The notes under the pieces were generated by a model. The model worked only from the letters and a program-made list of their open reading frames with translations, did no database searches and was not told the origin of the DNA. Shown piece after piece: positions 1 to 5,044 of a stretch of 5,044 nucleotides of DNA. The DNA is from Escherichia coli (lineage in GTDB: Bacteria > Pseudomonadota > Gammaproteobacteria > Enterobacterales > Enterobacteriaceae), in assembly GCF_003334315.1 (NCBI RefSeq), contig NZ_QOWR01000098.1; one strand, given 5' to 3'. How positions within the stretch are numbered: the first letter of the stretch is position 1; each line of letters opens with the position of its first letter. Position numbers and translations under genes: made by a program.

Positions 1-650
<650 letters not shown>

Positions 651-694: not shown

Positions 695-1120
695 TCAATG
701 CACAGCCACAATATTTCCTGCAGGGCCACCACGATTCATCTGGTTGAAACCAGCGATCGCCACTGCGACAAAATCATCAGCGTCTCTCACCAGTCGTTCC
801 CGCGTCTCCACTAGTTCCCGAAAATAGGCTGAGCTATGGCTGCGCATTCGGGCCACCAGCAGAGGTGGCATTGCTTTTTCGATAGCTGGTAACAACGCCT
901 GAATTTTTTCAACTGCATCAGGGGTGTCTTTCTCTACCCAGCGGAAAATTTTCTGGGTATTGCGAGCCAGGGCTTCCGGATGGCTGTCGTCATACAGTTC
1001 TGGGAACGTCATACCCAGTTCAAAATAAGCCCTGGTTATTTCAGCTGCCGGAACTTTTTCACCGTCCGGATGCGCCCAGGCATTCATCGCCATGCGGATG
1101 TGTTCATGCTTGATTTTCAT
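695..1120 (-). CDS. ydaT: YdaT-like protein (CII-type regulator of Rac-like prophages)
   Basis: 141-aa minus-strand ORF beginning MKIKHEHI, with ATG at 1120-1118 preceded by AGGAG at 8-nt spacing. It overlaps the 3' end of the upstream ydaS-like gene by 17 bp, the arrangement expected for the ydaS-ydaT pair. Identity rests on remembered sequence similarity and synteny. Confidence 0.7.
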   Translation of the reverse strand: MKIKHEHIRMAMNAWAHPDGEKVPAAEITRAYFELGMTFPELYDDSHPEALARNTQKIFRWVEKDTPDAVEKIQALLPAIEKAMPPLLVARMRSHSSAYFRELVETRERLVRDADDFVAVAIAGFNQMNRGGPAGNIVAVH

Positions 1121-1385
1121 GAATCAAGCTCCTAGAAAGTGGTTGTGTTAACATTTTGGTATCTTCCAGCTCGGGCCAAATATTCATCCAATCAAAAGGC
1201 CTTAGTTGCTGACGTGTAACTTCACCATTACTGGCTCGCTCAATAAGGACACATAACGATGCCCCTAACACTTGACCTTTACTCAATGCCTTTCTTAGAT
1301 AACCGATGCTGGTACCACACTCGCATGCAAACATACGCTGTTCATCTGACGAAAGAGAATTGAGAAATATTCTTAATTCTTCCAT
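1104..1385 (-). CDS. ydaS: Cro/CI-type HTH DNA-binding protein, YdaS-like
   Basis: 93-aa minus-strand ORF with ATG at 1385-1383 preceded by TAAGGAGTAGCT (AGGAG about 7 nt upstream). It is divergent from the repressor gene across a 100-bp operator region and is followed by overlapping ydaT. The length differs from my recollection of K-12 YdaS (about 98 aa), so this may be an allelic variant. Confidence 0.6.
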   Translation of the reverse strand: MEELRIFLNSLSSDEQRMFACECGTSIGYLRKALSKGQVLGASLCVLIERASNGEVTRQQLRPFDWMNIWPELEDTKMLTQPLSRSLIHENQA

Positions 1386-1415
1386 AGCTACTCCTTAGTA
1401 AACACAGCAAAGAAC

Positions 1416-1490
1416 ACCCATAGGTAAACAAAAGTCAATACCCACAGGTTGTTTACCTTGCAGTAATCGCATCTATTATTTACCTATGGA
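1416..1490. promoter_or_regulatory. Divergent control region between ydaS and racR with three operator-like sites sharing the core AGGTAAA / CCATAGGTAAA
   Basis: Site A is ccataggtaaacaa at 1418-1432. Site B is its reverse complement ttgtttacct at 1449-1458. Site C is tttacctatgg at 1479-1489 (reverse complement ccataggtaaa), overlapping the racR ATG. On the minus strand a -35-like TTGACT (plus 1433-1438) faces ydaS, and a TATTAT -10-like hexamer at 1474-1479 faces racR. Confidence 0.55.
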
Positions 1491-1905
1491 CAAATATGAA
1501 TTTAGACGACAGCAACTCATCAAAATTCGTGATGAGAAATGCGATGGTAAAGCGGTTAACGTGGCCAGAAAGATCGGGCGCGAGCCTTCTTATGTATCAA
1601 GAATGTTGTACCCAGAGGGGAAAAAGGGAAAAAAACGGATCGCTGATGATATGGTGGAGATTATCGAAGAGTCCTTTGGGTTACCCCGGGGATGGATGGA
1701 TGGTATCGTTTCATCATCAACGAACACAGCCTCCAGTTATGAAACAAGGGTTCTAACGCCACGACAACGTATTTTTTTAGATCTCTTAGACGAACTGCCA
1801 GAAAGTGAAGCGGATAACTTATTAAAAACTCTTGAAGAGAAAAAACAGTATTACAATATGATCTACGAAGAAATCCGTAAAAAGAAAGCACAAAACGCAT
1901 CATAG
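1486..1905 (+). CDS. racR: Prophage repressor, RacR-like HTH protein
   Basis: 139-aa ORF divergent from ydaS, in the position of the immunity repressor. There is no in-frame upstream start (in-frame TAA at 1399-1401) and no Shine-Dalgarno before ATG 1486. Operator-like sites flank the gene on both sides. The length differs from my recollection of K-12 RacR (158 aa), so I call it RacR-like. Confidence 0.6.
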   Translation: MDKYEFRRQQLIKIRDEKCDGKAVNVARKIGREPSYVSRMLYPEGKKGKKRIADDMVEIIEESFGLPRGWMDGIVSSSTNTASSYETRVLTPRQRIFLDLLDELPESEADNLLKTLEEKKQYYNMIYEEIRKKKAQNAS

Positions 1906-1950: not shown

Positions 1951-1981
1951 CCATGGGTATTTACTTTTTAAATACCTATGG
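1951..1981. promoter_or_regulatory. Imperfect palindrome ccatgggtattta / taaatacctatgg downstream of racR; operator-like and related to the sites upstream of racR
   Basis: Half-sites at 1951-1963 and 1969-1981 are inverted copies (12 of 13 match) and share CCATrGGTA with sites A and C. The overlapping hexamers TTTACT (1960-1965) and TATCCT (1983-1988) could form a rightward promoter towards ydaG/ydaF. Confidence 0.45.
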
Positions 1982-2159
1982 GTATCCTTCTTTTCATACC
2001 AACCCACCCCGCCCCACAGAATGCAGGGCAATACTTCGAGTTACCAGGCAGTGGTCAGGGGTTAAGTAGCCAGCCCGAGGCGTAAGAACATGACGGCGGG
2101 ATTCAAATTTTGCAGTGCAGCAGTTAGTTCCGCCACCCGGCGTTAAGGGGAGAGATAAG

Positions 2160-2294
2160 ATGGTGCATTACGAAGTAGTTCAGTATTTGATGGATTGTTG
2201 CGGTATCACTTACAACCAGGCTGTGCAGGCTTTACGCAGCAACGACTGGGATCTCTGGCAGGCAGAAGTCGCTATACGTAGCAACAAGATGTGA
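2160..2294 (+). CDS. ydaG: Small Rac-prophage protein, YdaG-like (44 aa), function unknown
   Basis: ATG at 2160 is preceded by AAGGGGAGAG. The translation is MVHYEVVQYLMDCCGITYNQAVQALRSNDWDLWQAEVAIRSNKM with TGA at 2292-2294. It is absent from the ORF track because of its size. Length and position match my recollection of ydaG between racR and ydaF. Confidence 0.55.
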   Translation: MVHYEVVQYLMDCCGITYNQAVQALRSNDWDLWQAEVAIRSNKM

Positions 2295-2304
2295 GATTCG
2301 CAAA

Positions 2305-2460
2305 ATGCAAAAAATCGACCTCGGCAACAACGAATCCCTGGTGTGCGGCGTGTTCCCCAACCAGGATGGAACGTTCACTGCCATGACGTATACCAAAAGC
2401 AAAACATTTAAAACCGAAACTGGTGCGCGCCGATGGTTGGAGAAGCACACAGTAAGCTAA
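2305..2460 (+). CDS. ydaF: Small Rac-prophage protein, YdaF-like (51 aa), function unknown
   Basis: ATG at 2305 with a weak Shine-Dalgarno. The translation is MQKIDLGNNESLVCGVFPNQDGTFTAMTYTKSKTFKTETGARRWLEKHTVS with TAA at 2458-2460. Its 3' end overlaps the convergent sieB stop by 4 bp. Confidence 0.55.
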   Translation: MQKIDLGNNESLVCGVFPNQDGTFTAMTYTKSKTFKTETGARRWLEKHTVS

Positions 2461-2945
2461 CGATTAAAACGTCTACTCCTGCTGTTCCAGAATAACTTCA
2501 TAAAATGGGAGTATTTTTCGGTGACGAGATAATAAGAACAGTTTGCGCTATCACTCTGATGTTGAATGATGCCCTTCCGTTCTAATTTTTTCATAACCGG
2601 GTTACGGCAAGGAGAAGTGATAATAAGATTTCCTGTTTTAAGGAAATCTTTAAATACAGCGATTTCTTTCTCAGATAAACGAAGCAATACTCGTTGCTCT
2701 GGTAGTAATGAATAATGCTTTTGAATATGTGCTCGCAATCTTGAGAAGGAAATGGCGACCACGAAAGAAAAGGCAAAAACGATAATCTGAAAGAGCCAAG
2801 GCATTTCAGTATAAGCATTGAATGCGACAGTAAACTCTTTCGGTATCAGCCAGAGAGTGAGACCAAAAATGATAATCGTATACATAAGTCTTTCGAGTGG
2901 CTCGTTAGCAAAAAGTTTCAACAATGGAGTAAATACATCCAACAT
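2457..2945 (-). CDS. sieB: Superinfection exclusion protein SieB (162 aa, membrane protein)
   Basis: This is the C-terminal 162 codons of track ORF 2457..3371, starting at ATG 2945-2943 (MLDVFTPLLKLFANEPLERLMYTIIIFGLTLWLIPKEF...), with GAGAG about 8 nt upstream. The hydrophobic N-terminal half is consistent with a membrane protein. The upstream 142 codons of the track ORF are antisense to recE and are rejected. Confidence 0.8.
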   Translation of the reverse strand: MLDVFTPLLKLFANEPLERLMYTIIIFGLTLWLIPKEFTVAFNAYTEMPWLFQIIVFAFSFVVAISFSRLRAHIQKHYSLLPEQRVLLRLSEKEIAVFKDFLKTGNLIITSPCRNPVMKKLERKGIIQHQSDSANCSYYLVTEKYSHFMKLFWNSRSRRFNR

Positions 2946-3093
2946 ATCAATAACTCTCAACTGTAAGGGTATTGAAATGTTAACACAAGCTCTCGCTGTA
3001 GGGGTATAGCCGAGACCACCGAAGCCCGGAGGTGGTGAAATAAAACCGGGCACAACACGAAGGCGCATTTCCGATATCCATAAAGAGTCGGTC

Positions 3094-4188
3094 TTGTCTG
3101 TTAAATTTAAATGGTGGAGTGCGCCTCCGGTTGTAAATAACGACATTGCTGTGTGTAGTCCTGGCGGCATCAGTTTTTTTCTTGAAGTTCGGCTGATGTC
3201 CGCCCTTTTTAAAGTGAATTTTGTGATGCGGTGGGTTGAAGCTAAGGAAAATGATCCGGAGGAAATGGAAGGCGCTGAACATCCGCACAATGAGAATGCT
3301 GGCAGCGATCCGCATCGCGATTGCAGTGATGAAACTGGCGAAGTCGCAGATCCCGTAATCGTAGAAGACATAGAGCCAGGTATTTATTACGGAATTTCGA
3401 ATGAGAATTACCACGCGGGTCCCGGTATCAGTAAGTCTCAGCTCGATGACATTGCTGATACTCCGGCACTATATTTGTGGCGTAAAAATGCCCCCGTGGA
3501 CACCACAAAGACAAAAACGCTCGATTTAGGAACTGCTTTCCACTGCCGGGTACTTGAACCGGAAGAATTCAGTAACCGCTTTATCGTAGCACCTGAATTT
3601 AACCGCCGTACAAACGCCGGAAAAGAAGAAGAGAAAGCGTTTCTGATGGAATGCGCAAGCACAGGAAAAACGGTTATCACTGCGGAAGAAGGCCGGAAAA
3701 TTGAACTCATGTATCAAAGCGTTATGGCTTTGCCGCTGGGGCAATGGCTTGTTGAAAGCGCCGGACACGCTGAATCATCAATTTACTGGGAAGATCCTGA
3801 AACAGGAATTTTGTGTCGGTGCCGTCCGGACAAAATTATCCCTGAATTTCACTGGATCATGGACGTGAAAACTACGGCGGATATTCAACGATTCAAAACC
3901 GCTTATTACGACTACCGCTATCACGTTCAGGATGCATTCTACAGTGACGGTTATGAAGCACAGTTTGGAGTGCAGCCAACTTTCGTTTTTCTGGTTGCCA
4001 GCACAACTATTGAATGCGGACGTTATCCGGTTGAAATTTTCATGATGGGCGAAGAAGCAAAACTGGCAGGTCAACAGGAATATCACCGCAATCTGCGAAC
4101 CCTGTCTGACTGCCTGAATACCGATGAATGGCCAGCTATTAAGACATTATCACTGCCCCGCTGGGCTAAGGAATATGCAAATGACTAA
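3094..4188 (+). CDS. recE: Exodeoxyribonuclease VIII (RecE), N-terminally truncated: only the C-terminal exonuclease-domain portion is present
   Basis: The translation contains [35 protein letters not shown] ... [10 protein letters not shown], which I recognise as the C-terminal region of Rac RecE. The stop at 4186-4188 overlaps the recT start, as in the native recET operon. The reading frame is open from 3010. The track start at 3094 is TTG; the first in-frame ATGs are at 3196 and 3226 and neither has a good Shine-Dalgarno, so the true start, if any, is uncertain. Confidence 0.8.
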
Positions 4189-4867
4189 GCAACCACCAAT
4201 CGCAAAAGCCGATCTGCAAAAAACCCAGGGAAACCGTGCACCAGCAGCAGTTAAAAATAGCGACGTGATTAGTTTTATTAACCAGCCATCAATGAAAGAG
4301 CAACTGGCAGCAGCTCTTCCACGCCATATGACGGCTGAACGTATGATCCGTATCGCCACCACAGAAATTCGTAAAGTTCCGGCGTTAGGAAACTGTGACA
4401 CTATGAGTTTTGTCAGTGCGATCGTACAGTGTTCACAGCTCGGACTTGAGCCAGGTAGCGCCCTCGGTCATGCATATTTACTGCCTTTTGGTAATAAAAA
4501 CGAAAAGAGCGGTAAAAAGAACGTTCAGCTAATCATTGGCTATCGCGGCATGATTGATCTGGCTCGCCGTTCTGGTCAAATCGCCAGCCTGTCAGCCCGT
4601 GTTGTCCGTGAAGGTGACGAGTTTAGCTTCGAATTTGGCCTTGATGAAAAGTTAATACACCGCCCGGGAGAAAACGAAGATGCCCCGGTTACCCACGTCT
4701 ATGCTGTCGCAAGACTGAAAGACGGAGGTACTCAGTTTGAAGTTATGACGCGCAAACAGATTGAGCTGGTGCGCAGCCTGAGTAAAGCTGGTAATAACGG
4801 GCCGTGGGTAACTCACTGGGAAGAAATGGCAAAGAAAACGGGTGATGATGCCAACTTACTGATTTAG
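4181..4867 (+). pseudogene. recT: recT (RecT single-strand annealing recombinase) interrupted by IS1 after codon 220
   Basis: ATG at 4181 is preceded by AAGGAA. The translation [35 protein letters not shown] ... THWEEMAKKT matches RecT as I remember it. From 4841 the frame runs into the IS1 terminal sequence, adding GDDANLLI before a stop at 4865-4867. The track ORF start at 4124 is a spurious upstream extension. Confidence 0.85.
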
Positions 4868-5044
4868 TGTATGATGGTGTTTTTGAGGTGCTCCAGTGGC
4901 TTCTGTTTCTATCAGCTGTCCCTCCTGTTCAGCTACTGACGGGGTGGTGCGTAACGGCAAAAGCACCGCCGGACATCAGCGCTATCTCTGCTCTCACTGC
5001 CGTAAAACATGGCAACTGCAGTTCACTTACACCGCTTCTCAACC
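4841..5044 (+). mobile_element. IS1 insertion sequence, left end (IRL plus the first ~200 bp); continues past the window edge
   Basis: ggtgatgatgccaacttactgatttagtgtatgatggtgtttttgaggtgctccagtggcttctgtttctatcagctgtccc... matches the IS1 left terminal inverted repeat and the insA leader as I remember them, with one mismatch in the IR (GAT where I recall GCT). The exact junction is ambiguous by about 1 bp. Confidence 0.9.
4896..5044 (+). CDS. insA: IS1 InsA (transposition regulator / N-terminal transposase part), 5' partial
   Basis: GTG at 4896 is preceded by GAGGTG. The translation is [49 protein letters not shown], the InsA zinc-finger-like N-terminus. It is truncated by the window end. Confidence 0.85.

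Follow-up and report, generated by a model that had tools for sequence, protein, structure and literature searches.

The DNA analyzed here (the window) is a stretch of 5,044 nucleotides (nt) from the Escherichia coli contig NZ_QOWR01000098.1 (assembly GCF_003334315.1) that carries part of a decaying Rac prophage, and our subject is a pair of overlapping genes on its minus strand: ydaT (695-1120), whose product is predicted to be CII-like, and a gene for a Cro-like helix-turn-helix protein (1104-1385). Both were intact in the list of open reading frames (ORFs), with ydaT encoding 141 residues from an ATG at 1120-1118 and the Cro-like gene 93 residues from an ATG at 1385 to a stop codon at 1104-1106. 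The two ORFs have 17 bp (1104-1120) in common. Each has a minus-strand Shine-Dalgarno sequence AGGAG, that of the Cro-like gene at 1391-1395 (within AAGGAG, 1396-1391, and 5 nt from the ATG at 1385) and that of ydaT at 1129-1133, inside the 3′ end of the Cro-like ORF and 8 nt from the ATG at 1120. A first-pass annotation of the locus had described the two ORFs, their overlap and their AGGAG sites, all of which were confirmed by the ORF list and by reading the minus strand. The gene order in the window is replication gene, ydaT, Cro-like gene and divergent repressor gene, as it is in E. coli strain H7 and at the Z1626 locus of O157:H7, and the rightward operon, which diverges from the repressor gene, begins with the Cro-like gene. 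We consider it highly probable that the pair represents intact Cro-like and CII-like early regulators of a lambdoid immunity region of the PaaR2/YdaS/YdaT kind.

Intactness was judged against strain H7, O157 Z1626, the prophage CP-933P and entries of the PDB. Alignment to K-12, which the first-pass annotation had proposed for this purpose, was run on the three regulatory proteins and was uninformative, as similarity was weak or absent. Positions 695-1485 are 100% identical to strain H7, with both ORFs full length. The H7 annotation lists the Cro-like gene as "transcriptional regulator" (WP_000391949.1) and ydaT as "toxin YdaT family protein" (WP_000693836.1), and the 17-bp overlap appears in it as well as in the annotation of O157:H7 Z1626.

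The YdaT protein of the window is identical at 140 of 141 residues to that of PDB entry 3C4R, and from its near-identity to this solved tetramer it is predicted to have a POU-like helix-turn-helix and a long C-terminal tetramerisation helix. Its sequence places it in the YdaT family, with matches to Pfam YdaT_toxin (PF06254; E 9.7e-10, over model positions 1-52 of 92 only) and to PHROG 163, "CII-like transcriptional activator" (E 9e-46), and the NCBIfam search gave no usable family for either YdaT or the Cro-like protein. The protein is close to CP-933P YdaT (PDB 8BT1; E 5e-80, 84% identity in alignment) and distant from K-12 YdaT (33% identity, or 35% in a three-way alignment). In the three-way alignment of the window, CP-933P and K-12 proteins the recognition-helix residues R60 and W61 are invariant, and the K-12 DNA-binding residue H56 faces a gap in the window protein. 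The ratio of nonsynonymous to synonymous substitution rates (dN/dS) of ydaT relative to the O157 Z1626 allele is 0.11, a low value that reflects a history in active phages and is no sign of selection in the present host. We conclude that 695-1120 is an intact gene of the YdaT family, with a predicted function as a CII-like activator.

The Cro-like protein has 36% identity over 78 residues to CP-933P YdaS, which is described as "antirepressor protein Cro" in PDB entries 8C7K and 8CO2 (E 1e-10 for the match). It also matches PHROG 35 (E 1e-22) and, in part, Pfam YdaS_toxin (PF15943/COG4197; model positions 30-62 of 65, E 1.1e-5). K-12 YdaS gave only a 28-residue local match, and DicC (E 0.05) is not similar. 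The NCBI Prokaryotic Genome Annotation Pipeline (PGAP) names the protein only "transcriptional regulator". The protein is thus probably a divergent member of the YdaS family, distinct from the K-12 allele, and "ydaS" is acceptable as a loose family label only. These PDB and PHROG matches, and the position of the pair, flanked by a replication gene on one side and a divergent repressor gene on the other, agree with the Cro-like and CII-like identities first proposed for the two genes.

The repressor gene (1486-1905, plus strand) is also intact and encodes 139 residues of the PaaR2/DicA type, with a presumed CI-like role. The protein matched PHROG 5736, "transcriptional regulator" (E 4e-70), and is similar to prophage repressors of the PaaR2/DicA type, having 23% identity over 90 residues to PaaR2 of CP-933P (E 9e-9) and, in its C-terminal 46 residues, 33% identity to DicA (E 1e-7); its N-terminal DNA-binding part is not similar to that of DicA. 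The NCBIfam DicA model matched the C-terminal part at 23.9 bits against a cut-off of 101, so that the protein is no DicA equivalog. No similarity to K-12 RacR was detected (BLASTP best E 2.3). On sequence the repressor is a distant PaaR2/DicA-type protein that is RacR-like only in position and presumed role, and the name "racR" would be wrong as a statement of homology. The first-pass view of the three genes as the K-12 racR, ydaS and ydaT alleles was consequently abandoned. As no peptidase family matched the repressor, RecA-driven induction of the prophage would be unexpected.

The YdaT-box: operator, joint and predicted promoter

The start of ydaT coincides with the YdaT-box, TTGATTTTCATGAATCAA (1110-1127, both strands), an exact match to TTGATT-N6-AATCAA with the ydaT ATG (1120-1118) in its 6-bp spacer. 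The sequence TTGATT-N6-AATCAA was footprinted with CP-933P YdaT and named the operator OM (PMC9986795), and in K-12 Rac a "YdaT-box" was footprinted that likewise has the ydaT ATG in its spacer; the K-12 and CP-933P YdaT proteins cross-activate (PMC11879457).

The box also marks a boundary. We aligned the junction from the window, strain H7, K-12, O157 Z1626, CP-933P and a P22-Cro-type module, and found that similarity begins abruptly at the box. A collection of 188 box-containing loci fell into 16 upstream sequence classes that have the box and ydaT in common but are mutually unrelated upstream of the box, and an identical CP-933P YdaT occurs downstream of two different modules, PaaR2/YdaS and CI-S24/P22-Cro, with a 4-bp overlap in each case. 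From its O157 Z1626 counterpart YdaT differs at 20 residues, the Cro-like protein and the repressor at only one each. From these comparisons, the repressor gene, the Cro-like gene and their operators are an exchangeable cassette that meets ydaT precisely at the box and the Rac backbone at approximately 1995. To judge by its sequence, this is a heteroimmune cassette within a Rac backbone, of another immunity type than that of K-12 Rac. The YdaT-box is the mosaic joint between immunity cassette and ydaT and, by analogy with the homologous sites to which YdaT binds, would also be an operator. We also observed a 30-bp island, in which window positions 1097-1126 correspond to 9679-9708 of the K-12 sequence (L002) with 97% identity, flanked by genes that are 33% identical or unrelated; it comprises the YdaT-box and the first codons of ydaT (MKIKHEHI).

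The overlap of the two genes had been taken to imply their coupled expression. Its length is not conserved: CP-933P YdaT, as an identical protein, joins other Cro-like genes by a 4-bp overlap (ATGA), and in K-12 there is a 22-bp gap between ydaS and ydaT and no overlap. The overlap contains the YdaT operator and the module joint and is not mainly there for coupling, and the comparison of sequences identifies the 17 bp as incidental, set by the particular Cro-like reading frame that runs into the YdaT-box, and not as a conserved coupling device. What stands of the earlier proposal is that coupling is possible. In the ydaT mRNA (1095-1150, minus strand) the repeat of the box would form an 8-bp hairpin with the AUG in a 6-nt loop and the Shine-Dalgarno sequence just 5′ of the stem, with a predicted stability of -9.6 kcal/mol (z -2.9) that none of 200 shuffled sequences equalled. 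The Cro-like ORF spans this entire hairpin, and its stop codon follows directly after it. Ribosomes ending the Cro-like ORF would open the ydaT hairpin and may in this way couple the two genes.

Beside the box, on the strand opposite the pair, we predict a YdaT-dependent promoter of the PRE type, with the extended -10 element TGtTAACAT at 1146-1154 (plus strand; hexamer TAACAT at 1149-1154), a start at approximately 1161 and the center of the box at about -42.5. A motif TAnnnT begins 21 or 22 nt past the box on this strand in 16/16 upstream classes and in all nine of the families obtained by grouping at <45% identity in the 60 nt past the box. In these sequences TAnnnT has a background frequency of 0.013 per position, and in 5000 shuffles at most 6/9 families had it at a common offset pair. 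The motif is preceded by TGn, as in an extended -10 element, in four of the nine families, and the bases that separate it from the box are not conserved among the modules. An activator centered at about -42 occupies the usual class II position.

A published reporter for CP-933P that is switched on by YdaT reaches, according to the primer sequences (Table S3 of PMC8630535), from 18 nt upstream of the box to 84 nt past it, and in CP-933P a TACAAT sits 22 nt past the box. Because merely 18 nt of the insert lie upstream of the box, the promoter of this reporter must lie at or past the box. For the same reason we rejected, for the CP-933P reporter, a promoter that lies ahead of the box and starts within it (the wording of PMC9986795). 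A second candidate explanation, that the fixed motif, read as AnnnTA on the sense strand, is the stop codon of the upstream gene, was ruled out by eye in the window, K-12 and CP-933P. We infer from its position that a transcript begun at approximately 1161 would cross the Cro-like gene in antisense and go on to read the repressor gene in sense, as does that from lambda PRE.

Candidate operators and promoters flanking the repressor gene

Five sites of the type TACCYATRGGTA (with no more than two mismatches) were found at 1415, 1439, 1481, 1948 and 1973, where 0.29 would be expected and none of 200 shuffled sequences reached five. They are clustered on both sides of the repressor gene, which is the layout of a lambdoid immunity region. 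Three lie between the divergent genes (all sites on both strands): the operator-like palindrome CACCCATAGGTA (1415-1426; OR1-like) overlaps the -10 element and spacer of the candidate PR promoter of the pair, TACCCACAGGTT (1439-1450; OR2-like) adjoins its -35 element and has its center some 41.5 bp ahead of the start predicted for PRM, and TACCTATGGACA (1481-1492; OR3-like) is centered on the repressor start codon. Beyond the repressor gene is an OL-like pair (1948-1984) of perfect operators, TACCCATGGGTA (1948-1959) and TACCTATGGGTA (1973-1984). The protein that binds the TACCYATRGGTA sites can be suggested by reference to homologues, in which the repressor and Cro bind the intergenic region, and on this analogy both would do so here.

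The candidate PRM promoter, TTTACC-16-TATTAT (1452-1479, plus strand), is the sole consensus promoter match in 600-2200 and is also present in the relatives. Transcription from it is predicted to begin on the A of the repressor ATG (1486), in front of which there is no Shine-Dalgarno sequence; for these two reasons the repressor mRNA is probably leaderless. Leaderless mRNAs are documented for PaaR2 and lambda cI (PMC8630535). A candidate PL-like promoter, TTTACT-17-TATCCT (1960-1988, plus strand), lies between and over the OL-like sites; this tentative assignment matches the consensus at 8/12 positions, which is below the threshold of the scan. Its predicted start, at approximately 1995, is the point at which homology to K-12 Rac (99% identity) resumes. 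The OL-like pair also forms a hairpin with a 16-bp stem, followed by a T-rich run, which a scan flagged as terminator-like and which is present in the relatives, and the OL-like sites may also serve to terminate transcription of the repressor gene.

The consensus scan of the same region (600-2200) reported no promoter on the minus strand, and the promoter of the pair was deduced by way of the relatives, which have TTGACT-16-TATTCT on that strand (reported by the scan in one of them, L115). The corresponding sequence of the window (1411-1438, minus strand) has the -35 element TTGACT (1438-1433), a 16-nt spacer and the -10 element TGTTCT (1416-1411). It differs from the relatives at position 1415, where the window has a G at -11 in place of A. 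This G is rare, with 74 A to 1 G among IMG/VR contigs and 75 A to 3 G among the 79 fetched loci, and an exact 50-mer of the window occurs in 20/822 E. coli genomes with the cassette, so that no more than 20 carry the G. In a sigma-70 -10 element the A at -11 is among the two bases that matter most, and given the effect that its replacement would be expected to have, expression of the pair after derepression is probably weak. The first-pass description of the pair as directly under repressor control is accordingly plausible as regards the operator layout, but strong expression on derepression is doubtful. In O157:H7 Z1626 (L003, 4684-4800, minus strand) the -10 element TATTCT is kept and the -35 element is TTGGCT instead of TTGACT, owing to which the promoter scan found no PR there. 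It is our impression from these two cases that different lineages may have weakened the same PR in different ways.

A probably quiet switch in a decaying prophage

In the mechanism we propose, the Cro-like gene and ydaT would be co-transcribed from the PR-type promoter at approximately 1438-1411, which is overlapped by TACCYATRGGTA-type operators, and these operators would be bound by the divergently encoded 139-residue repressor and probably by the Cro-like protein too. The YdaT tetramer would bind 1110-1127 and, from about -42, switch on the weak opposite-strand promoter at 1146-1154, the transcript from which would read the repressor gene and so establish repression, as the equivalent of lambda CII acting at PRE. 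The cassette is then a known kind of system with a new, predicted operator specificity. We lean slightly toward a more particular version of this scheme, in which the establishment promoter is a proximal one of class II type, often with an extended -10 element, at a fixed 21-22 nt from the box, K-12 included, and in which PR has been silenced in the present lineage by the A-to-G change at -11. Most likely, the switch is a quiet, largely harmless remnant and not a poised toxin.

The closest parallel is the PaaR2/YdaS/YdaT system of CP-933P (Sp12) in O157:H7 (PMC8630535, PMC9986795; PDB 8BT1, 8C7K), which has the same architecture, with an intergenic region of ~100 bp containing multiple operators, an identical perfect YdaT-box at the start of ydaT and a repressor start that is leaderless-looking in both. 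It differs in the paaA2-parE2 toxin-antitoxin pair behind its repressor gene, which the window lacks, in its operators (GTTTAGTAA-type repeats there, TACCYATRGGTA in the window), in the length of the Cro-ydaT overlap (4 bp compared to 17 bp) and in having a dicB-type backbone, whereas that of the window is Rac (recET, sieB). K-12 Rac, with RacR/YdaS/YdaT (PMC5700373, PMC5700377, PMC11879457), has the same backbone and gene order and a nearly identical YdaT-box at the start of ydaT; however, its repressor is unrelated, its YdaS and YdaT are as distant as described above, and toxicity and the essentiality of the repressor are features of K-12. The region resembles that of lambda CI/Cro/CII in the placing of the operator-like sites (three between the divergent promoters, two past the repressor gene), in an operator at about -41.5 from the predicted PRM start, in the leaderless-looking repressor mRNA, and in an activator site that overlaps the -35 region of a predicted antisense promoter at the cro/cII junction. 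With DicA/DicC of Qin it has in common a DicA-like repressor C-terminus, and the same cassette is found in the dicB-type prophage of O157:H7 Z1626, but the N-terminus of the repressor is unlike DicA and the Cro-like protein is unlike DicC.

Several points weigh against this interpretation. Every promoter assignment is a consensus-based prediction, and the -10 element of the candidate PR is poor (3/6), so that the true promoter could lie elsewhere. The similarity of the repressor to characterised repressors is weak, and a Pfam search of it gave no family match, the DNA-binding domain included. An effect of the window YdaT allele on the host is conceivable, in view of the toxicity of K-12 YdaT, to which it is 33% identical. 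The structure paper on CP-933P has the box cover or lie downstream of the PRE start (PMC9986795), unlike the -42 geometry, and the K-12 study credited activation by YdaT to PracR4, a software-predicted promoter ~190 bp from the box (PMC11879457). K-12 Rac has a TATGAT 21 nt from the box, and because the published K-12 constructs also contained it, the published K-12 data do not separate PracR4 from this proximal promoter.

The prophage around the cassette is undergoing decay. The window is 99.4% identical to K-12 Rac over 1995-3233 and 99.9% over 3234-4841, and the backbone from 1995 carries ydaG, ydaF and sieB, then a deletion, the 3′ part of recE, and recT. The deletion, of 2,641 bp relative to K-12 Rac at 3233/3234, has removed kilR, ydaE, racC and ~548 codons of recE, and its junction was found in 0/5,426 complete E. 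coli genomes. The C-terminal part of RecE that remains (~318 residues) is in frame with an ATG at 3226, 8 nt upstream of the junction, and the deletion may resemble the sbcA-type deletions that activate recE. The K-12 small RNA gene kilS (L002, 7406-7503) maps to 3113-3210 (plus strand), just upstream of the junction, and is apparently retained, kilR being gone; an Rfam scan of the window gave no matches at gathering thresholds. The end of an insertion sequence, IS1, at 4838-5044 (99% identical to an IS1A copy of strain H7) enters recT at ~4841, at about codon 220, and the recT ORF continues into IS1 to a stop at 4867. At the other end of the window, an end of IS2 (IS3 family; 1 to ~77, possibly 94) interrupts the replisome-organiser gene beside ydaT, the remaining ORF of which (18-629, minus strand) has 203 residues compared to 356 in strain H7; a 140-bp query spanning the IS2 joint was matched over 80% or more of its length by no complete E. 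coli genome. The truncated recE and the IS1 in recT reported in the first-pass annotation are thus real, as is its contrast between an intact pair and repressor and a decaying prophage, the three regulator ORFs being full length and the replication gene, kilR, recE and recT disrupted.

That contrast is among the points in favor of the alternative which the first-pass annotation carried over from K-12, namely that the trio is a toxic, addiction-like module with an essential repressor and a pair that, when derepressed, blocks division and kills, and that it is kept by selection. In K-12, racR is indeed essential and expression of YdaS and YdaT is toxic (PMC5700373, PMC5700377), with YdaT causing filamentation through the host rcsA promoter (PMC11879457); the YdaT-box is common to both systems and the K-12 and CP-933P proteins cross-activate at it (PMC11879457), the three regulator ORFs have stayed intact beside four disrupted genes, and ydaT has a low dN/dS. 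However, the repressor is unrelated to RacR and the Cro-like protein barely related to K-12 YdaS. The window YdaT is far closer to CP-933P YdaT (84%), its closest tested homologue, than to that of K-12 (33%), and in CP-933P YdaT showed no toxicity and the pair proved to be no toxin-antitoxin system (PMC8630535); residue H56, moreover, is opposite a gap. The rare G at -11 in the likely PR would blunt derepression, kilR, the known division inhibitor of Rac, has been deleted, and a low dN/dS is what a history in active phages would be expected to leave. We regard this alternative as improbable.

We consider it more improbable still that the locus is an inert remnant whose ORFs are intact merely for lack of time, with a non-functional switch and no selection. 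The rare G at -11 in the likely PR is consistent with this, as are the IS2 in the replication gene, the deletion from kilR to the 5′ part of recE and the IS1 in recT, and the absence of the deletion junction from the 5,426 complete genomes indicates that the decay is recent. Nevertheless, the repressor, PRM, the five operators, the YdaT-box and the ribosome-binding sites of both genes are all unbroken, ~820/5,426 E. coli genomes have the cassette, and switches of this sort stay active in defective prophages, as CP-933P shows (PMC8630535). Hardly any credence is due to a classical type II toxin-antitoxin pair in which YdaS would be the antitoxin to a toxin YdaT, for although the Pfam names YdaS_toxin and YdaT_toxin, the PGAP label "toxin YdaT family protein" and the small, overlapping genes would suit it, YdaT binds DNA at a defined operator as a helix-turn-helix tetramer (PMC9986795), the proposal was tested and refuted in CP-933P (PMC8630535), and the same YdaT is found with at least nine unrelated upstream genes, including those for a P22-type Cro with a CI/S24 repressor, which is incompatible with a co-evolving couple. 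The history recounted in the first-pass annotation, of a pair once described as a toxin-antitoxin module and later reinterpreted as Cro-like and CII-like regulators, agrees with the literature (PMC5700377, PMC5700373, PMC5917428, PMC8630535).

The reading of the pair as Cro-like and CII-like early regulators is of little significance beyond annotation, the switch being of a well-understood type and the YdaT allele already having a crystal structure, yet for annotation it means that this cassette should be given neither the K-12 names (racR, ydaS) nor the "toxin" labels. The overlap of the two genes would be a regulatory site, comprising an operator and a predicted antisense promoter, and is a recombination joint of exchangeable modules. 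For the YdaT family, the fixed position of the -10 element offers a simple alternative to the model of "activation from a distance" for K-12 YdaT. If the effect of the G at -11 is as we suppose, this would be a prophage tamed by a point mutation in a promoter and not by gene loss, the early operon of a defective prophage having been quietened.

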